A stretch of 47,898 nt of DNA from Candidatus Poseidoniaceae archaeon (GCA_022424925.1 JAKMGM010000007.1:1-47898); one strand, 5' to 3'. Positions 22,137-37,083 are shown, numbered from the stretch's first letter. A program made the numbers and translations. Notes: generated from the sequence alone by a model not told the origin.

Positions 22137-23402
22137 TTAATCCTCGTCTTCAAAGACAACAGGGTCTCCCGTCCCACCAGGTGAAGGCGGCCGAGCATCC
22201 TCAACTTCCATTCCTGGCTTAATGGGCTGTTCATTCACGTCAAGATTGACGCGACCACCCTCAGCAAGCGTGGCCATGTCGTCTGTATCAGGAGTTGAGA
22301 GTGTGCGCCTCACATCGGGTGCGTTACTGTACGCATCTCGCTTCGCTTCGCGAGCATCATGCGTTCGAACCAAAGACAAGGAATCGGCAAACACTCGACC
22401 GACAACTTCCCGAGTACGCTCGCCTCTGCGAACCGAATCCAGTTCATGGACCATTGTTTCACGCTGACCCTCGAGTTCGCGCAGTTCTGCAGTTCGGTCC
22501 TGTAATGCTGCTTCCATGTCCGTGAGCGTGAGTGTAATCTGCTGAATACGTTCGTCGCGCTCAAAGACATCGTTATGCAATCGCCTCTCTCTCCTGCGTA
22601 GCGAGTCATATTCTCGGTTTCTCTCGAGAAGCCTTCGCTTAAGTTCTTCAATTTGTTCAACGAGGTAGTCGTGCTCTGCAGAAACCGACCGAGGCCCCTG
22701 CATGACACGCTCCAATTGTTCTTCGAGCTCCCCTAGTCGACCATCACGCGCATCAAGGAGGCCTCGTAGCCGATCAGCAATATCCCGCAACCGTTGTCGT
22801 TCTTCTTCAAGAGCTTTGTTTGCTGCTTGCTCCGCTTCGTTTTGTGCAAGGGCGGTGTCGAGCTTCGACTTGAGACTTCGAACTTCCTCAGCGGTGACTG
22901 AAGTGAGTCCAGCATCAGCCGCCCGCTCCAGTGCTTCGACCATTTGTGAAATACGTCCTTCCATCTCACCAATTACTTCGTCCTGCTGTGTGGTTAGGGT
23001 TCGTAGTTGTTCGACCTCATGTGCCGCCGCCGCTCGTTCTTCATGGGATATTGAGGATTGTTGGGATGCCAACTCTTCTCGAACATCTCCGAGCAGCCTT
23101 TCAAGATGGATGACCTTTGCTTCGCTTTCTTGGAGGGCTGAATCCGTTTCAGCCAGGCGCGCCACTTCAGGCGCAACCATGTCTTCACGCTCAGCCAAGT
23201 CAAGTTCCAGAACTCGCAACCGTTGTTTTACTGAAACCATTTCCTCGTTCCGAGCAGCGAGCTCATTCCAAGCGATGAGAACTTCCTCGACAAGTTGTTC
23301 AACCGGGTATCCTTTGAGCATGCCTTCGAGGGCTGCACGCTCATCGCCACTCGCATCACCGATACGGTTGATTCCACTGGTTCCGGAAGAGTCGAGCGTC
23401 AT
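22137..23402 (-). CDS. Coiled-coil protein (~350 aa of heptad-like E/R/L/A/Q sequence) with acidic Pro-rich tail
   Basis: The composition and periodicity fit a coiled coil (e.g. LEEQLERVMQ, IEELKRRLLERNREYDSLRRRERRL). It has no TM segment and no enzymatic motif. It lies on the same strand, 93 nt downstream of the actin-like gene. Confidence 0.7.
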   Translation of the reverse strand: MTLDSSGTSGINRIGDASGDERAALEGMLKGYPVEQLVEEVLIAWNELAARNEEMVSVKQRLRVLELDLAEREDMVAPEVARLAETDSALQESEAKVIHLERLLGDVREELASQQSSISHEERAAAAHEVEQLRTLTTQQDEVIGEMEGRISQMVEALERAADAGLTSVTAEEVRSLKSKLDTALAQNEAEQAANKALEEERQRLRDIADRLRGLLDARDGRLGELEEQLERVMQGPRSVSAEHDYLVEQIEELKRRLLERNREYDSLRRRERRLHNDVFERDERIQQITLTLTDMEAALQDRTAELRELEGQRETMVHELDSVRRGERTREVVGRVFADSLSLVRTHDAREAKRDAYSNAPDVRRTLSTPDTDDMATLAEGGRVNLDVNEQPIKPGMEVEDARPPSPGGTGDPVVFEDED

Positions 23403-23495
23403 ACAAGCGTCTATCGCCGCACAACCACACTTGAACTTTCGCCATCAAAAGGCGTCTTAGATGGCTGGTTTTCCACCCTTGCTTTGCTACCGACA

Positions 23496-24500
23496 TCAGT
23501 TGATTGCGGTGAACATATCGTCTGGCATTTCTCCAGCGAGTTGAAGGGCGCCAGTAGCAACGGCGTTGATTGGGTCGTCAACACACCATACATTGACATC
23601 ACCGATATCTGAGATTTCGTCAGCCATACGGGCGGCAATGCCTTCGATGAGGGAGCCACCACCGGACAAAATGATGTTGTTACGTAGGACTGGTTGGTAT
23701 TCGGGGTCTGCGCCTGCGACGATTCGCTTGATGGCGTTACCGATCTTTGGAATAATGAGTTCACAAGCTTTGTTGACCAGGTCTCCGATATCGACAACCT
23801 GCTTTTTCCCCTCAACTGAGAGTTCAACCATTGCTTCGCGATCATCAGAACCAACATAGGACACTTCTTCTTTCCACTTTCGAACCATGTCTTTTGTGAC
23901 TTGAGCGCCCGTGTACTTCTTTCGAATGAGTTCCATGAGTTCGTTGTCCAACCAGTCTCCTGCTTCTTGGATGGTGACTTGGTCTTCATCGGTTGGGAAT
24001 GTACCGTAAATGCGCGCAATATCGGTTGTTCCTGCGCCAATGTCGACGACGATTGAACTTGCGATTTCTCCGATTCCGAAAGCGGTTGCAAACGGCTCTG
24101 TGACGACCATGATGGCGTTTACCTGACCGCGTAGCGTAGCGACGAGGTTTGACTTGTCAGTGAACGACACGTGACTTGGTGAGCAAATAACGCCAAAAAC
24201 CTCGTCGAATTCTTCAGGGTCTACGGTTTCTAGAAGATGTGAAACGAAGGCCTTCGCAGCCGCAAGGTTCGCTTCGTCATCTTGAGCAACACCTGCAGCC
24301 ATTGGGCGGTAAAGGTTGCAGGCAAGTTTGTTTTTGAGTGCATCGTTTCCGAACAACACATCGCGTCCAAGGAAGTTACGGGCAACCGGGTCTTTCGGTC
24401 GACCGACTACGGTTTCGATTGTGTGGCTGATTCCAGCGCTTGATGCAATTGTAGATTGGTAGGTACCTAGGTCGATTCCAACATATAGACGGTCACTCAT
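23496..24500 (-). CDS. Actin-fold ATPase of the MamK/MreB type
   Basis: The motifs are phosphate-1 YVGIDLGTYQS, phosphate-2 VVDIGAGTTDIA and adenosine NIILSGGGSLIEGIA, plus VVGRPKDP and VVTEPFATAFG. From memory, the DIGAGTTD / GGGS pattern is closer to MamK than to MreB (DIGGGTTE). The ATG at 24500 is preceded by GGAAGGTGAAG (SD-like). Confidence 0.85.
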   Translation of the reverse strand: MSDRLYVGIDLGTYQSTIASSAGISHTIETVVGRPKDPVARNFLGRDVLFGNDALKNKLACNLYRPMAAGVAQDDEANLAAAKAFVSHLLETVDPEEFDEVFGVICSPSHVSFTDKSNLVATLRGQVNAIMVVTEPFATAFGIGEIASSIVVDIGAGTTDIARIYGTFPTDEDQVTIQEAGDWLDNELMELIRKKYTGAQVTKDMVRKWKEEVSYVGSDDREAMVELSVEGKKQVVDIGDLVNKACELIIPKIGNAIKRIVAGADPEYQPVLRNNIILSGGGSLIEGIAARMADEISDIGDVNVWCVDDPINAVATGALQLAGEMPDDMFTAIN

Positions 24501-24614
24501 ATTCTTCACCTTCCGCTTTGCGGATGTATCGGCGAGTATGCCACCACCCTTCAAGGTTCACCTTTGTACATATTGCTTCTTTTACCACTCAATGCACACA
24601 TAATCTATGCGCAA

Positions 24615-27600
24615 TCACTCGTTTTCATCCGCTTCTTGACCGTCGTAACCGGCCGTATCAACGGCGAATGCCGGCACTCGTTTTTGGTTGGGTGATGTAT
24701 GGCGCACATTCCATCCTAATTGATACATCACGAGAATCCCGCCCAGTATTCCAAAAACACCCCACATCAAGGCTCTGGTTTGCGACGCCCGCCCCTGAAC
24801 ACCCTCTCTGACCTCATCTTCGACTTCGAGAAGCGGATTGTTCCACTCGCTGGTGAAAGTCGCCTCATCACGAACAAGAACCGTGTCTCGCTTTGCTTCT
24901 GGTGAACCGTTGCGTGATTGTATAAAGATTTCAATTTGCAGAGGTTGGCCTCGGATATCCCACACAGGCAAGTCATTCGGAATTTCCCACAAACAAGAGA
25001 ATGTACCGTTCTGCACGTTGGTTTTCGCACATGACGCAATTGGATATGCGTTGCTTGTATCGGACAGGTTCACAACTTGAATGGAAGCACCCGTGTCAAA
25101 AGCATCCCCCTCCACATCGTGCGCAACCCATTCCACAACCAATTCATCATACCACACACCACCGTCTTGGGGGGATAAAACAAAGTCAACAACTGGCAAT
25201 GAATCGACCGGCCTACAGCCGTTTGAATCGACGGGCCAAAAAATTGTAACGACTTCAGTGAAACACCGGTCGAGGTTATCGAGGACACCATCACCGTCTG
25301 TATCATCGATGCAGCCGTCATTGTTTGCATCAAAATTGAGCGAATGCTGTTCGGGACATACATCGTTTGCATCGTTAACCGAGTCACCATCCGAATCATC
25401 GATACATCCATCTTCATTCACGTCCCAGTCCCGAGCATTCTCATTTGGGCACCCATCCACCGCATTAGCCACGCCATCCCCATCATCATCACTCCACGCT
25501 TGCGAATCCCGATGGACACCCTTCACTGCGAGTGCAAAACCTTGCCGATCGCCGTCAATCCCTACCGAACCTTGCTGATTTCCTGGAGTGATGTAACGGG
25601 CTCGCACCTCGATATCAACCCATTCTATTCCAGTCAAATCTTCTGGGGAGAGCGATACTGCAACGGTGGTTTCATTCCTGTTTGGAAACGATGTCGTGTT
25701 TGAAAAATCGACAACATTGGAAAAGAACAGCGTTGAATCTCCATCAGATTGGAATTCTCCAGCAAGCGCTTCAGTTCCGTCAGAGAGTCTGACGATGAGC
25801 TGCAAATCTTGTACCAGATACGGTTCAGGCGAAGAAGGCCACGCAAGCCGCACATCAAGGTGTTCACCGTTGAGTTCAAACCGTTTCGTCCACTGCTCAC
25901 CCGTTTTCAGAAACGGACCCGCTGCATCCGTTGCGTTCCACGGCATGGCATGTAAATTTTCCAACGCGTCGTCTGTGCCATTGCGCTGAACCAACCACTC
26001 AGCAGGACTTTTGTCTGCAAGCCGATAGGAATCGTGAATCCACAGGTCGGAGGTCGGAGAAACATTTCCGCGATGCAGTGCATTCTCCACTGCGGCCAAA
26101 TCAATGAGTTCTGAGAGATTTAATTGCCCCCACCCATCGTGTTCATTTTGCAACTGATACCCACCTTCACCCCCGTTTCTTTCTTGCTGGGAAAGCTGTG
26201 TTGTTGAGAGTGCGAGAAGGCTTCGTAGCAATGCGCCTGATGGGGTGAAACCTTCAGCAAGTTCAAGGTTGTTTGAACTGTTCAGCAATGGGTCTGCCCA
26301 AACAGGTCGCAACTGACTGACTGGTGTTGCGGTGCGACTCTCATATCCAGAAATCCAACCGTCTTCGACCAATTGCTGCAGGATTGCAGCAACGCCAGCG
26401 GCTGCTGGCGTCGACATACTTGTACCGGATGAAGAGCGCAATGCATCGTTGTAAGAATCCGGAATGCCGTCTGCACGCGCTGATTGAATCGATGTCCCGG
26501 GTGCAAGTGCAAAAATACCGTTCGTTCCTGCTTCGGTTGGCCCGATTGATGAAGAAGGCCATACCGACATTGACGGCGATTTCACTGAAGCACCGACGGC
26601 CACAACGTTCCTACCATTTGCAGGCTCGAGTAACTGCCCCCCATTGTTACCTGGTGCAACAAACGCAAGCGACCAAGGCATTTCGAGAGCCCATGCGTCG
26701 AAGTCGGCGGTTCGCGCAGTATACTCTGTAGTAGCGTCACCCCAAGAATTCGAATGGATAACTGCTCCGTGCGTACCCGCTTCAACAAACAGTGCATCGA
26801 CATCCGGTGGAACCCACCCCTCATCTGAGACAATATCTTGGAACACGAGCATGCTTTCGTGCGCCAGTGCCGAACCGTTCTTTGGCTCAGTATTTGAGCG
26901 CATATTGTACACATTGTAGCATGAAAGGGTGCCTGCAACATGCGTACCGTGGCGATAATCCGAGTGTCCATTTGTATCTCCTGAATCAATCGTATGGTTG
27001 ACTGCAAGAATTTTCCGATGACTGCCGCCCGGTTCGCCCACGCCATCTGTGCCGTTGGAACCCACCTCTCCAATCGTGGTAGCATTCCGGAAACATGCAT
27101 GGTCGTAATCGATTCCTGAATCTGCAGCCGCTACAACAATACCCGTTCCGTTTAGCCCCAATTCCCATGCAGGATTTGCGGACGTTTTTCCATGCTGAAT
27201 GAGCGACGCGGCAAGTGAGTTACGCCCGACGGTTTCGAGAACCGGTTCAATCCACAAAACACCGTCGAGAGTATGAAGATGGGGATGCCGTGCAAAGGTT
27301 TTCCACTCGATCACCTCGGTATGCGGCATGGGTGTTGAATACGCGTCGATATTTGGATTGATGTTGAAATTTACCGCCTCAAACGCTCGAAGCAGTTGGT
27401 GCACTGCGTCTTCAGGAAGGCGCGGCTCAAAGACTATTTTCACGTGTTCGACACCACTACCGCCAACCAATCCTTTGATCTCAGGCGCTGGCGCATCATG
27501 TGTTTCGAATACCGAAGAAGGCGTATAGGTGCCACTTCGCCAGACAAGAATTTGGTTTGGAGTAACCACCCTCAGTGGAGTGTGGCCTGAACCCTCAAGT

Positions 27601-27746
27601 GAATCCCACATGTTTTGGTCCCAATGGTTTTCTTCGAGTTCCAGAATATATTCTGAACCCAGCATGTTGGACTCTGGAACAGTTGGATTGAAGCCTTGTA
27701 CAAGCGGTATGAGCAGCAACACCGTGAACAACAAGGCGGGTCGCAT
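24615..27746 (-). CDS. Subtilisin-like serine protease (S8) with signal peptide, Ca-binding repeat region and C-terminal TM anchor
   Basis: The catalytic residues are Asp in AAADSGIDYDH, His in HGTHVAGT, Asn in NSWG and Ser in SGTSMSTPAAAG. The signal peptide is MRPALLFTVLLLIPLVQG. The C-terminal helix ALMWGVFGILGGILVMYQLGW is followed by a short acidic tail. Confidence 0.9.
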   Translation of the reverse strand: MRPALLFTVLLLIPLVQGFNPTVPESNMLGSEYILELEENHWDQNMWDSLEGSGHTPLRVVTPNQILVWRSGTYTPSSVFETHDAPAPEIKGLVGGSGVEHVKIVFEPRLPEDAVHQLLRAFEAVNFNINPNIDAYSTPMPHTEVIEWKTFARHPHLHTLDGVLWIEPVLETVGRNSLAASLIQHGKTSANPAWELGLNGTGIVVAAADSGIDYDHACFRNATTIGEVGSNGTDGVGEPGGSHRKILAVNHTIDSGDTNGHSDYRHGTHVAGTLSCYNVYNMRSNTEPKNGSALAHESMLVFQDIVSDEGWVPPDVDALFVEAGTHGAVIHSNSWGDATTEYTARTADFDAWALEMPWSLAFVAPGNNGGQLLEPANGRNVVAVGASVKSPSMSVWPSSSIGPTEAGTNGIFALAPGTSIQSARADGIPDSYNDALRSSSGTSMSTPAAAGVAAILQQLVEDGWISGYESRTATPVSQLRPVWADPLLNSSNNLELAEGFTPSGALLRSLLALSTTQLSQQERNGGEGGYQLQNEHDGWGQLNLSELIDLAAVENALHRGNVSPTSDLWIHDSYRLADKSPAEWLVQRNGTDDALENLHAMPWNATDAAGPFLKTGEQWTKRFELNGEHLDVRLAWPSSPEPYLVQDLQLIVRLSDGTEALAGEFQSDGDSTLFFSNVVDFSNTTSFPNRNETTVAVSLSPEDLTGIEWVDIEVRARYITPGNQQGSVGIDGDRQGFALAVKGVHRDSQAWSDDDGDGVANAVDGCPNENARDWDVNEDGCIDDSDGDSVNDANDVCPEQHSLNFDANNDGCIDDTDGDGVLDNLDRCFTEVVTIFWPVDSNGCRPVDSLPVVDFVLSPQDGGVWYDELVVEWVAHDVEGDAFDTGASIQVVNLSDTSNAYPIASCAKTNVQNGTFSCLWEIPNDLPVWDIRGQPLQIEIFIQSRNGSPEAKRDTVLVRDEATFTSEWNNPLLEVEDEVREGVQGRASQTRALMWGVFGILGGILVMYQLGWNVRHTSPNQKRVPAFAVDTAGYDGQEADENE
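25262..25500 (-). repeat. Tandem thrombospondin-type-3-like Asp/Cys calcium-binding repeats inside the S8 protease
   Basis: The translated repeats are DDDGDGVANAVDGCP, NEDGCIDDSDGDSVNDANDVCP and NNDGCIDDTDGDGVLDNLDRC. Confidence 0.6.
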
Positions 27747-27813
27747 AATTTGGCTTGAACCGTCAAACTTTGTCAATCTCGTGGTCGAAACTACACATTC
27801 CACGCGACGGCGC

Positions 27814-33461: not shown

Positions 33462-35243
33462 ATGCGAAACGCTCTCTTCCTGTCTTTGTTGGTTCTTTTA
33501 GGGCCTCTTTCAGGATGTTTCGGTGCCTCTACAGCAAACGAGGACGGCATGTCAGAACCTTCCATGTATCCAGAGGTATGGAACCGGCACACCCTTGATT
33601 GGAATTGGACGGACAGCTATTCGTACGTGCTTGAACCGGGACCTTATACCGCACTTGAAGTCCAAGAGGCCACCTTCGAAGTAGATACCTCAGAGGTGTG
33701 GGAAACAGGCCCTGCGACTTCGACCGTACATCTTTCTTACTGGCTCCCCTCGAATACGGAACTTGGAGAGAAAGTCCCCGTTATTGCAGTTGTAAGCCCA
33801 TACTTTTCGTTTGGACAGCCCGGCGATGAATCCGGTGCAACGTACGTTGTTGGAGCCGGGCGCGGCGAGTTCATTTATGACAACTACATCCCTCACGGCT
33901 ATGCTTTCGCCCAAGTTTCCGTGTTTGGCACGGAGGAATCTTCTGGCTGCTTTGACTATCGCGGTGAAGGCGAAGGATGGGGCATTCATCAAGCGGTCGA
34001 ATGGCTCGGTGATCAAAACTGGTCGAATGGAAAAGTCGGCCTGTACGGGAAATCGTATGAAGGAGCCACACAATGGGAGGCGGCAGCTATCGGCAGTGAA
34101 CACCTCGCAACCATTGTTCCAATTTCTGGAACAACCGGGCTGCATCCACTTCTTTACAAGAATGGGAGCGCAGAAGCGCGTAGTCAAGTCATGCACATGA
34201 ATTACTTCAGTAGCACAGTCGATTACAATGAGGATGATTTCGACAACATCTGTCCTGACATTATTGAAGGCTTCTTTGCTGGTCCTGTGACGTACGGTGC
34301 CGGCGAACTCGACCCTTACATGTCAAATTAGTACGATGAGAGAGAACACCTTACTAAGGCGTTTGAGAATTACAACGGCAGCGTTTACTGGGTTCAAGGA
34401 ATGCAAGACTGGAACGTTGACCCGCACCAAGTTTTCCCAGGGTATCAGATGTTTATCGATGGGGGTTTCGAAGTGCGCGGCATGCTTGGCCAGTGGGAGC
34501 ACAACTATCCAGACCAATGGTCGAAGCACAATGCACAGGACAGCGGCTATGGCGGTGAAGCCATCCACAACATGACGCGTTGGGATTGGGCTCAAGATTT
34601 ATTTGAATGGTTTGAATACTATCTCAAAGGAATCGGTGAAAAACCGGACCTTCATGCTCAAATTCAGCGGAACGATGGAGAGTGGCGAATTGAATCAACA
34701 TGGCCGCCGCTTGATGCTGAACCGATAGCCCAACCATTAGCGGACTGTTCGCAAACCGGCCAGCAAGTTGCCGGGGCAAGTGTAGCAGGAGGGGGTCTTG
34801 CCAGCGTCACTTTCGATTGCCCAGCACTGTTTGACGACATGGACGCTCACCTCACCGGCCTGTTTACGTTGCACTTGGACGTCACTGCAGCAATGGACGG
34901 GGGGCAAGTTTTCGCTGAAATGCAAGATGCTGAAACCGGCTTGAGACTTGGGCACGCTACAATGGATATCCGTTACTATCGCGGCGGAAGCGACCCAACA
35001 ACTGTTCTTCCCGGACAAAGCCTCACAATGCTGATGGAATTTCAGGCGATTGATGCCCTACTCCCCGCAGGCCACGGCATACGCCTCGTACTTACGGAGA
35101 CCGGAGAGGATTACTTGGCACCTGCTTGCGGCATCGCATGCCCCGTGACCGTTAACGGCGGCACGCTCACCGTACACCACATTGTTCGAGACGGTAGCAT
35201 GATGCTTATCACACCTCAAGGCGAAGATGCAGCGAACGCCTAG
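33462..35243 (+). pseudogene. CocE/NonD (S15, X-Pro dipeptidyl-peptidase-like) hydrolase with lipobox signal peptide, interrupted by one in-frame TAG
   Basis: Track ORFs 33462..34331 and 34401..35243 are in the same frame. Translating through the TAG at 34329 gives ...GELDPYMSN*YDEREHLTKAFENYNGSVYWVQGMQDWNVDP.... The nucleophile motif GKSYEG lies upstream of the stop, while the Asp (QDWNV) and His (GQWEH) motifs lie downstream. The signal peptide is MRNALFLSLLVLLGPLSGC. Confidence 0.75.
34329..34331 (+). other. In-frame amber codon inside the S15 peptidase reading frame
   Basis: The local reading is tac atg tca aat TAG tac gat gag aga, with the frame continuous on both sides. Confidence 0.9.
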
Positions 35244-36069: not shown

Positions 36070-37083
36070 ATGATGGATAAAGCAAAACTCGAATACATTT
36101 GGCTTGACGGATACAACCCTACACAGAACATGCGCAGTAAAACCCTCGTGAAGAAAGATTTCACCGGTACACTTGAAGAATGCCCTATGTGGAACTTCGA
36201 TGGTTCTTCTACCAAGCAAGCGGAAGGAAACTCGTCAGATTGCCTTCTCAAGCCTGTTGCCATCTATCCAGACCCACAACGGTTCAACGGATTCCTTGTC
36301 ATGTGCGAAGTTTTGAACGCTGATGGAACTCCACACGCCAGCAATGGTCGTGCCACCATTGAGGATGATGATGAGGATTTTTGGTTTGGATTTGAGCAAG
36401 AATATTTCATCATGGATACCGAAACTCAACTTCCTTTGGGCTTCCCAGTTGGTGGATTCCCAGGCCCTCAAGGCATGTACTACTGTTCGGTTGGAGGCAA
36501 GAATACTCACGGCCGTTCCCTTGTCGAGGAGCACGCTGATTTGTGCCTTGATGCAGGCATTAACTTCGAAGGTATCAACCAAGAAGTCGCCTGCGGCCAA
36601 TGGGAGTTCCAAATTTTCGCTAAGGGCGCCAAGAAAGCTGGAGACGAACTGTGGGTCGCAAGGTATCTCCTAGATCGCCTAACAGAAAGCTATGGTTGCT
36701 ACATTGAGTACCACCCGAAACCAGTCAAGGGCGACTGGAACGGCTCAGGAATGCACGCTAATTTCTCGGACAGCCGAATGCGCGAGCAGGGTGGAGAAGA
36801 AATGTTCACTAAGATTTGTGAAGAATTTGGTAAGAACGTCAAGAAGCACATGGAAGTTTATGGAGAATTCAACGAACAGCGCTTAACCGGCCTTCACGAA
36901 ACACAATCGATTGACCAATTTTCGTACGGTGTTTCTGATCGCGGCGCATCTATTCGTATCCCAGTAACCATTCCAGAAGACGGTTGGATTGGTCGATTGG
37001 AGGACCGTCGACCTGCTTCGAACGGCGACCCTTACAAGATTGGTGCGGTGATTATTTCAACCACCAAAGCGTCTTACAACTGA
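36070..37083 (+). CDS. glnA: Glutamine synthetase, type II (short, eukaryote-like form)
   Basis: LEYIWLDGYNPTQNMRSKT, PMWNFDGSSTKQAEGNSSDCLLKPV, FGFEQEYF and GSGMHANFS follow the GSII pattern. At 337 aa it is far shorter than GSI (~450-470). Confidence 0.9.
   Translation: MMDKAKLEYIWLDGYNPTQNMRSKTLVKKDFTGTLEECPMWNFDGSSTKQAEGNSSDCLLKPVAIYPDPQRFNGFLVMCEVLNADGTPHASNGRATIEDDDEDFWFGFEQEYFIMDTETQLPLGFPVGGFPGPQGMYYCSVGGKNTHGRSLVEEHADLCLDAGINFEGINQEVACGQWEFQIFAKGAKKAGDELWVARYLLDRLTESYGCYIEYHPKPVKGDWNGSGMHANFSDSRMREQGGEEMFTKICEEFGKNVKKHMEVYGEFNEQRLTGLHETQSIDQFSYGVSDRGASIRIPVTIPEDGWIGRLEDRRPASNGDPYKIGAVIISTTKASYN

Follow-up and report, generated by a model that had tools for sequence, protein, structure and literature searches.

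Introduction

Among the partners of MamK are coiled-coil Mad proteins, as found in deep-branching magnetotactic bacteria (PMC12748827). BeeR, an actin related to MamK, comes from non-magnetotactic bacteria; its function is unknown, and no partner has been described for it (PMC11929497). Salactin from Haloarchaea/Methanotecta is reported as an archaeal sister family of MamK and affects chromosome partitioning in Halobacterium (PMC10746226). Here, we study two neighboring genes at positions 22137-24500 of a 47,898-nucleotide (nt) stretch of DNA from Candidatus Poseidoniaceae archaeon (GCA_022424925.1, JAKMGM010000007.1:1-47898), i.e., a member of marine group IIa (MGIIa) within the marine group II (MGII) archaea. 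The whole stretch is called the window in the following. The first gene encodes a putative MamK-like actin of 334 amino acids (aa), the second a long coiled-coil protein of 421 aa (cc421).

Poseidoniaceae are uncultured and among the most abundant archaea of the surface ocean; to our knowledge, nothing is known of their cell biology, and archaea are not known to contain murein. In the searchable MGII literature, we found no discussion of the MGIIa actin gene; its only record is an 'mreB' entry in a supplementary table. MGII cells are cocci of about 0.7 µm (PMC6864105), and all Poseidoniaceae genera encode an archaellum operon, without known chemotaxis genes (PMC6461757). The euryarchaeal polar cap is described as proteinaceous, of unknown composition and thought to contact ArlC/D/E (PMC8978795).

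The crenactin-arcadin and ParM-ParR systems likewise consist of an actin-like filament and an adjacently encoded, dedicated partner, which is a small or a coiled-coil protein. Crenactin belongs to the eukaryote-like branch of actins. The MGIIa pair shares this layout but shows no sequence relationship to these systems, and there are no centromere repeats at its locus. We argue, with somewhat more confidence than doubt, that actin and cc421 form a conserved two-gene cytoskeletal module of MGIIa. Such a module is a previously undescribed variant of a known theme, in which an actin-like filament has its own partner, and would be restricted to MGIIa and perhaps basal MGIIb.

Results

Family and fold of the actin

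The actin open reading frame (ORF; 23496-24500, minus strand) encodes a protein of 35.9 kDa with a pI of 4.4. Among the NCBIfam profiles, MamK (NF040964) is by far the top-scoring family: its full-length alignment (5-332 / 1-329) yields 339.4 bits (E 2e-101), which is below the curated MamK cutoff of 400. BeeR reaches 214.7 bits (cutoff 530), salactin 34.1 (cutoff 400) and ParM 21.2 (cutoff 417), and the MreB subfamily models TIGR00904 and PRK13927 score 87.3 bits vs. a cutoff of 293 and 76.8 vs. 365.75, respectively. Within Pfam, only the broad models MreB_Mbl and Actin exceed their thresholds, plus salactin as a borderline case (27.1 bits for a gathering score of 27.1); the MreB_Mbl model (93.9 bits vs. 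27) also takes in all MamK-like proteins.

A sequence search of the PDB (phmmer) ranks MamK first (5jyg/5ljv, E 1e-63, about 35% identity), followed by BeeR (2e-39), MreB (5e-14) and actin (5e-9). The AlphaFold2 (AF2) model of the actin, built from a 54-sequence alignment (pLDDT 90.1, pTM 0.88), was compared with known structures using Foldseek. Its best match is the filament-state MamK 5ljv (TM-score 0.94/0.96, root-mean-square deviation (rmsd) 1.4 Å, E 5e-36) and its second BeeR (8r2n, TM-score 0.90), while E-values for eukaryotic actins and MreB are near 1e-23, i.e., about 12 orders of magnitude behind the MamK filament. That is, MamK (5jyg, 5ljv) is the nearest characterised family by profile, sequence and fold. 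On these comparisons, we classify the protein as MamK-like and not as MreB, i.e., as a divergent new member of the known MamK-like family. An earlier, preliminary description of the window had called the gene 'MamK/MreB-type', of which we keep the first part (339 bits) and drop the second (87 bits vs. 293).

The same description reported a 334-aa actin-fold ATPase with intact motifs, and both coordinates and motifs hold. The ATPase motifs are YVGIDLGTYQS (residues 6-16), VVDIGAGTTDIA (150-162) and IILSGGGSLIEGI (276-288), such that phosphate-1 (GIDLGT), phosphate-2 (DIGAGTTD) and adenosine (SGGGS) motifs as well as the catalytic-loop Glu (VVTEPF) are intact; the nucleotide-binding and catalytic motifs form invariant columns of the family alignment. 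The uncharged Pro270 corresponds to MamK A278, whose A278D mutant does not polymerise.

Could the protein be a non-filament enzyme or chaperone with an actin fold, e.g., Hsp70, a sugar kinase, FtsA-like or EutJ? Weak matches to HSP70 (16.5 bits), FtsA (21.3) and EutJ (20.9) are found, and HscA and butyrate kinase also stay under 21 bits. Each of these scores misses its curated cutoff and is more than 300 bits lower than that of MamK, and the fold fits the MamK filament conformer at an rmsd of 1.4 Å. We thus ruled out this identity, to which we assign a negligible probability; the profile check suggested in the preliminary description puts MamK on top and not the non-filament families (16-21 bits for Hsp70, sugar kinase and FtsA).

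BeeR (Verrucomicrobiota; 8r2n) resembles the MGIIa protein as a MamK-related actin of non-magnetotactic hosts and second-best PDB match. In contrast, the hallmark of BeeR, a disordered N-terminal extension of 30-50 aa, is not present in the MGIIa actin, whose strand 1 begins at about residue 4 in the AF2 model, and the BeeR score of 214.7 is far from 530. Unlike MamK, the MGIIa actin has an archaeal host, and magnetosome genes are neither found in the scanned window nor known in the lineage. Pfam scans, which covered window ORFs up to 38.3 kb, gave no mam/mad genes and no genes of the peptidoglycan elongasome (MreC/D, RodA, PBP2, RodZ). MGIIa actins are usually auto-annotated as 'rod shape-determining protein MreB'; since MGII cells are cocci of about 0.7 µm, a rod-shape role is implausible, and since they also have no cell wall, no peptidoglycan and no magnetosomes, we expect neither a rod-shape nor a magnetosome-alignment role. 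Salactin illustrates that a MamK-like actin can work in archaea that lack magnetosomes, but it stems from another lineage, has no reported coiled-coil partner and matches the MGIIa actin only at the borderline in Pfam and far below the cutoff in NCBIfam.

With regard to the gene start, reading from an upstream TTG extends the ORF to 23496-24554 (352 aa), compared to 334 aa from the ATG at 24500. The MamK alignment starts at actin residue 3, and sequences of other species have 1-nt indels between TTG and ATG. We therefore rejected the TTG start and consider the ATG at 24500 as the real one. The leader (24501-24565, minus strand) shows near-invariant blocks and is non-coding in our reading because of the 1-nt indels, which are found in loci L040, L047 and L054. 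Public gene calls for the MGIIa actin differ in their start and range from 334 to 376 aa (P0001, P0002 and P0042 with 352 aa, P0003 with 343 aa, P0023 with 340 aa). TTG-extended calls run through the conserved non-coding leader and are thus probably wrong.

Architecture of the coiled-coil protein

The gene of cc421 (22137-23402, minus strand) encodes a protein of 47.5 kDa with a net charge of -37 and starts 93 nt downstream of the actin on the same strand, in agreement with the preliminary description. An AF2 model (pLDDT 74, pTM 0.25) predicts about 320 residues as α-helix. It comprises a head (1-33), i.e., a disordered part (1-17) followed by a short conserved helix (19-29), then four helices (34-117, 120-163, 171-235, 241-357) separated by short breaks and, after this rod, a small structured element (364-393) and a disordered tail (398-421). 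Fourier analysis yields a hydrophobicity period of 3.45-3.55 residues for each helix, above that of shuffled sequences (p 0.003-0.012; whole rod p<0.0005). Such a period of 3.5 is that of coiled coils, compared to 3.6 for a plain amphipathic helix.

The preliminary description called the protein heptad-like, with an acidic Pro-rich tail and with neither a transmembrane segment nor an enzymatic motif. The periodicity of 3.5 residues in all four helices bears out the heptad-like character, and the tail is indeed acidic and rich in Pro. No transmembrane segment is found (the highest Kyte-Doolittle 19-residue mean is 0.51), nor is an enzymatic motif. Pfam searches gave no family at E<=0.01, no recognisable DNA-binding domain and, for the ArlD/E domain Arch_fla_DE, no match even at E<=10; no PDB sequence match is better than E 0.04.

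We rejected an SMC/Rad50 fragment as the identity of cc421, an outcome that would have spoken against the preliminary description: SMC models score 31 and 26 bits for cutoffs of 729 and 567, their alignment is confined to the coiled-coil arms, Pfam reports no SMC_N, head or hinge domain, and there is no PDB match. Crescentin, FilP and Scy resemble cc421 in their succession of head, segmented coiled-coil rod and tail without enzymatic domain, but homology is not found (the best Rod_CreS score is 12.8 bits vs. a cutoff of 100, in one ortholog). The predicted head, segmented heptad rod and tail (358-421) thus correspond to an intermediate-filament-like layout in the sense of an architectural class, not a homology family. 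MamK, too, has non-enzymatic acidic or coiled-coil partners, namely MamJ, McaA/B and Mad20/23/25/26 (PMC12748827); however, none of the tests run showed homology of cc421 to MamJ or to Mad proteins. As judged from these searches, cc421 is a new, lineage-specific protein family without detectable homologs elsewhere.

Across 80 MGIIa species, cc421 shows 73-94% identity. Residues 198-345 hardly vary among 70 full-length orthologs, and all 70 keep the tail pattern RP[PAS][SA]PGG[ST]GDP[VA][VLI][FY] with an acidic stretch after it; in its stricter form, the peptide reads RPPSPGG[ST]GDPV[VLI][FY][ED][DE]ED. In the window, this C-terminal peptide comprises residues 404-421, RPPSPGGTGDPVVFEDED, encoded at 22140-22193 (minus strand). 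Its pLDDT is below 50, and a conserved peptide within a disordered tail is the usual signature of a docking motif. The C-terminal peptides of ParR and arcadin-2 bind their actins and serve as a model for the cc421 tail. By this analogy, the peptide (...GDPVVFEDED) is most likely the docking site of cc421.

An alternative is DNA segregation of the ParM/AlfA/salactin type, i.e., the actin moves chromosomes and cc421 is the adaptor. An actin plus an adaptor follows the ParMRC logic, and salactin, reported as the archaeal family closest to MamK, influences how chromosomes are partitioned in Halobacterium (PMC10746226). On the other hand, we found no iterons and no direct or tandem repeats near the pair, the actin matches the ParM profile with 21 bits only (cutoff 417), and the locus belongs to the core chromosome with ordinary GC content. 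The net charge of -37 and the missing DNA-binding domain of cc421 point in the same direction, where the charge is a moderate argument given that the whole proteome is acidic. We thus consider DNA segregation improbable.

Conservation of the pair across MGIIa

Both ORFs have hundreds of near-full-length homologs and are therefore no chance ORFs. For locus comparisons, we used the best 80 of 295 GTDB contig stretches (one genome per species) that encode a relative of the actin; all of these are MGIIa-type, and the Poseidoniales loci that we inspected directly are from MGIIa. In 80/80 of these species loci, cc421 directly follows the actin, with a gap of 91-102 nt in 79/79 loci. In the window, the intergenic region (23403-23495, minus strand; 93 nt) contains a T-run, which is a possible archaeal terminator, followed by a conserved promoter-like block.

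Both flanks of the pair are far more variable than this gap, i.e., the distance between S8 protease and actin ranges from 49 to 1525 nt and that between cc421 and the gene of geranylgeranylglyceryl phosphate synthase (GGGPS) from 3 to 1758 nt, exceeding 100 nt in 33/65 loci. Identity of the actin is 87-99% across the 80 species, and the actin is the slowest-evolving gene of its neighborhood: the mean pairwise distance is 0.10 for actin, 0.21 for cc421, 0.25 for GGGPS and FtsY, 0.29 for L18Ae and 0.51 for the S8 protease. Thus, cc421 evolves slower than GGGPS, FtsY and L18Ae, and both genes of the pair are under strong purifying selection.

The preliminary description left open whether the membrane-anchored S8 protease (24615-27803, minus strand; 1062 aa) belongs to the pair. 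Such a three-gene unit could, e.g., use filaments to position a surface protease. The gene is indeed located on the same strand, 114 nt upstream of the actin as described, and nearly all MGIIa loci show the same gene order. The protein has an N-terminal signal- or anchor-like segment, a weak match to thrombospondin type-3 repeats and a C-terminal hydrophobic anchor. The gap is, however, not only variable (49-1525 nt) but interrupted by a 1.5-kb insertion in L075, the fast-evolving protease keeps an identity of only 43-70% across MGIIa species, its residual rate correlation with the actin is 0.01, and the actin is preceded by a conserved box and a Shine-Dalgarno site of its own. Furthermore, S8-family proteases are core to both MGII families, since aprX is listed for 158/158 and 92/92 genomes in a published supplementary table. 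The protease is thus probably not part of the system, and we regard a three-gene unit as very improbable.

Two observations concern the data sources. The contig L044 (DLTU01000102.1, 4.1 kb), filed under the metagenome-assembled genome (MAG) 'Candidatus Microthrix sp. UBA7828', carries the actin-cc421 pair with 89% and 79% identity and is almost certainly a mis-binned archaeal contig. Representatives with 60-70% identity in the library clustered at 50% (L090, L091) were considered as a divergent MGIIb lineage; we rejected this, as they are frameshifted MGIIa contigs of low-coverage or long-read origin.

A shared box upstream of both genes

A 17-nt box, GAANNTTSAAGNGTGGT, is found upstream of both genes. 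Upstream of cc421, it reads GAAAGTTCAAGTGTGGT (23424-23440, minus strand), located 21 nt before the ATG (-38..-22) and not followed by a Shine-Dalgarno site. Upstream of the actin, it reads GAACCTTGAAGGGTGGT (24543-24559, minus strand), located 42 nt before the ATG (-59..-43) and followed by a small hairpin and the Shine-Dalgarno-like site GGTGA. The box has exactly two matches in the window (24559-24543 and 23440-23424), where this rarity is no independent test since the box was derived from the same two sites. Independent are its absence from the rest of about 1 Mb and the fact that other species keep it at both sites: within 1.06 Mb of related loci, a relaxed version occurs only upstream of cc421 (80/80) and of the actin (52/79). 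The alignments show a near-invariant core GGTGAACCTTGAAG of the actin-upstream box and a conserved block GGGAARGTTCAAG[TA]GTGGT before cc421.

We interpret the box as, probably, a local TATA-like element with pair-specific flanks. Given its position at -38..-22 without a Shine-Dalgarno site, the cc421 box may be the promoter, with a transcription factor B recognition element (BRE) and TATA-like element, of a leaderless or near-leaderless mRNA, while the actin mRNA would be leadered, given the box at -59..-43 with subsequent GGTGA. Each gene thus appears to be under its own promoter with the same unusual extended box, and because of this shared box the two genes are probably co-regulated rather than co-transcribed.

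No RNA-level element emerged from the two leaders. RNAalifold predicts essentially no consensus structure, no Rfam match was found in leaders or intergenic region, and a hand-drawn 5-bp hairpin before the actin's Shine-Dalgarno site (columns 48-60) shows only one covarying pair.

Relatives of the actin and their gene contexts

The 120 best database matches to the actin all show at least 84% identity and, where named, are from Poseidoniales, Poseidoniaceae or 'Euryarchaeota' MAGs. Within the 50%-identity library, MGIIa actins form one full-length cluster, and the next relatives have 40-47% identity. These relatives are (i) long forms of 523-1232 aa, in which the actin domain is C-terminal to a short domain of helices and a long linker of low complexity (one of them is from a candidate division KSB1 bacterium, and KSB1-type forms are the closest with 43-47% identity), (ii) P0257 with 42%, (iii) actins of ANME-2 anaerobic methanotrophic archaea/Methanosarcinales with 38%, and (iv) bacterial proteins annotated by NCBI as 'MamK family actin-like protein' from Nitrospirota, Methylomirabilales, Thermodesulfobacteriota, Planctomycetota, Gammaproteobacteria and a Clostridium-group isolate. 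Many NCBI-annotated members of the MamK family come from non-magnetotactic taxa.

A neighbor-joining tree places canonical MamK and BeeR within one radiation, in which the MGIIa sequences cluster tightly at the end of a long branch. With the backbone of this tree unresolved, the gene may originate from bacterial transfer or from archaeal ancestry. The support for grouping MGIIa with KSB1-type forms is weak, namely 24 on a scale that tops out at 84 due to a numerical problem in some replicates. As to an acquisition from bacteria, which the preliminary description deemed possible, the nearest sequences are bacterial, yet ANME-2, the L087 clade (see below) and salactin provide archaeal MamK-like or sister sequences as well.

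Actins next to long helical proteins are found in further lineages. In ANME-2 (L084, L086), the actin is followed after 26 nt by coiled-coil proteins of 1940 aa and 1752 aa. Their N-terminal domain matches Pfam's Arch_fla_DE (ArlD/E; E 4e-10, 39.9 bits vs. a gathering score of 21), and they carry repeated 'EGYENFDELxSFF' motifs (L084 7001-13925; L086 8001-14373). We found no description of this combination of an actin and a giant ArlD/E-domain coiled-coil protein in the literature. Judged by its domains, the ANME-2 pair is a candidate link of the actin cytoskeleton to archaellum or polar cap. It resembles the MGIIa pair in that an archaeal MamK-like actin (38% identity) directly precedes a long coiled-coil protein, but its partner is of 1752-1940 aa with Arch_fla_DE, while cc421 lacks this domain and is no homolog of that partner. 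In an archaeal clade with Rpb5 and diphthamide synthase neighbors (L087, L092, L093), a 610-aa protein with a charged helical region of about 290 residues follows the actin, and a planctomycete locus (L089) encodes an E/R/L-rich helical protein of 316 aa with Pro-rich tail just upstream of its actin. That is, actin plus long helical protein is observed in the three archaeal clades inspected and a few bacteria, and is no family-wide rule.

Other contexts relate to motility and polarity. The actin of L081 (1-4507), 42% identical to that of the window, is part of a CheA-CheC-CheD-actin-291 aa-CheC chemotaxis operon. At its C-terminus, the 291-aa protein carries DPSLIFDEDGEE, similar to the tail GDPVVFEDED of cc421; this 14-residue similarity is not significant (E 0.23). 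KSB1-type long forms, which have a long disordered N-terminal extension, are found in L082 (7001-13791), L083 and L173 (7001-16157) in an operon with a second short actin, 3-4 Roadblock/LC7 proteins and a Ras/Arf-like GTPase, such that the operon of one subclade is an MglA/MglB-like polarity set. Another long form (L172) stands alone.

Within MGII, a published supplementary table lists 'mreB' for 88/92 MGIIa (96%) and 30/158 MGIIb genomes (19%). The synteny of the pair across Poseidoniales, which the preliminary description proposed to check, is thus found in every MGIIa genome examined but is not uniform over the order. From the same table, MGIIa/MGIIb counts for archaellum genes are 79/41 (flaB), 79/46 (flaH) and 83/26 (flaK), i.e., 86-90%/16-29% and thus a distribution similar to 'mreB'. 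As kaiC, lysC, natA and purP show similar numbers, this parallel is suggestive but not specific. The table also contains MGIIa-only clusters with names typical of mis-annotated coiled coils, namely trichohyalin (TCHH, 80/0), spectrin (SPTA, 78/0) and ninein (NIN, 67/3), one of which may be cc421.

Module or neighbors by descent

The main competing explanation is that actin and cc421 are neighbors by descent only. In this case, the actin would form filaments alone or with unlinked partners, and cc421 would serve an unrelated task, e.g., in division, chromosome organisation or envelope scaffolding. Several results weigh in this direction and thus against a module. First, the whole region FtsY-prefoldin-L18Ae / S8-actin-cc421 / GGGPS / ATP-binding cassette (ABC)-rhodopsin is collinear in MGIIa, so adjacency alone is weak evidence. 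Second, the rate covariation of actin and cc421 (r=0.53) is not specific, since cc421 and prefoldin show the same value. Third, the broad MamK-like family, scanned in 80 metagenomic loci (L092-L171), shows no enrichment of an adjacent long coiled-coil ORF (3/104 vs. 6/380 in the background, p=0.41); a general rule 'MamK-like actin plus coiled coil' is rejected for this broad, mainly bacterial family. Fourth, a Rosetta-stone test for homology of cc421 to the partners of other lineages or to the N-terminal extensions of KSB1-type actins yields hhalign probabilities below 1%. Fifth, the core TTCAAG/TTGAAG of the box is similar to motifs that many other window genes carry 20-55 nt before their start, such that part of the box similarity may only reflect a generic promoter. 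Furthermore, 'mreB' is listed for 30/158 MGIIb genomes but the coiled-coil clusters TCHH, SPTA and NIN, which may include cc421, for only 0-3. Finally, the polymerisation of the actin, though most likely, is expected from family membership.

On the other hand, insertions repeatedly break both flanks of the pair and never its gap of 91-102 nt, the extended box is specific to the pair and present at both genes, and independent pairs of an actin and a long helical protein exist in ANME-2 and the L087 clade. Taken together, we see neighborhood by descent as a serious explanation that is nevertheless clearly on the unlikely side, and we lean towards the two-gene module. With regard to the two-component module of the preliminary description, co-conservation, strict adjacency and the shared box stand in its favor, while rate covariation does not. 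The pair-specific box, the conserved C-terminal peptide of cc421 and the analogous pairs in two other archaeal clades are additions to that description.

The broad-family scan shows a context of its own, i.e., an Amidase_3 peptidoglycan hydrolase upstream in 69/80 loci and a response-regulator/SPOR protein downstream in 40/80. The amidase is also found at L088, within a clade of Nitrospirota, Methylomirabilales and others. This context suggests a cell-wall or division role in the main bacterial MamK-family clade. 

Further features of the window

The archaeal genome context that was described for the window is confirmed by its Pfam-annotated neighbors, i.e., GGGP synthase (PcrB), ribosomal L18Ae, prefoldin, FtsY and rhodopsin, and the rest of the scanned window consists of ordinary housekeeping genes. 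GGGP synthase (plus strand, end 22134) and cc421 (minus strand, stop 22137-22139) converge with 2 nt in between, so any terminators must be part of the coding sequence on the opposite strand; insertions of up to 1.7 kb are found at this junction in other species. The motifs resembling TTCAAG/TTGAAG upstream of many window genes may show what MGII promoters look like. An X-Pro dipeptidyl-peptidase seems split into two adjoining same-strand ORFs, Peptidase_S15 (33462-34331, 289 aa) and PepX_C (34401-35243, 280 aa), which may be due to a frameshift, a pseudogene or an assembly error. A glutamine-synthetase-like ORF (36070-37083) with Gln-synt_N and a partial Gln-synt_C has 337 aa only; a typical glutamine synthetase I is longer.

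Discussion

If actin and cc421 act as a module, the following mechanism is the most likely one. The actin would polymerise into ATP-dependent filaments as MamK and BeeR do. Soluble cc421 would dimerise via its four heptad segments and bundle or scaffold the filaments, or tether cargo to them, with its disordered C-terminal peptide as the docking part. In this model, the two proteins would interact physically. The likely role of such a module is intracellular positioning or organisation.

For the cargo, organisation of the pole or the archaellum is our leading guess, at low probability, because of the motility and polarity contexts of the relatives and the ArlD/E domain of the ANME-2 partner. 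Extending this guess, MamK-like actins with lineage-specific coiled-coil proteins could constitute a previously unrecognised cytoskeletal system of archaellated Euryarchaeota. It would organise both the cell pole and the motility apparatus and might form part of the polar cap beneath archaella, with the MGIIa pair as its version in the most abundant archaea of the surface ocean. The ArlD/E domain in ANME-2, the Che operon of L081, the KSB1-type operon with Roadblock proteins and GTPase, and the archaellum-like distribution of 'mreB' all lead in this direction; still, we hold the extended view to be unlikely.

A MamK-type actin is among the most strongly conserved genes of Poseidoniaceae, yet it is labelled MreB in small murein-free cocci. 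The ANME-2 pair with its ArlD/E-domain partner provides a concrete candidate for a link between archaellum motor and cytoplasmic scaffold. If the actin and cc421 work together, they would represent a new archaeal actin-plus-adaptor system, in which the MamK family has a role beyond magnetosomes, and would offer a simple two-protein entry point into the cell organisation of MGII.

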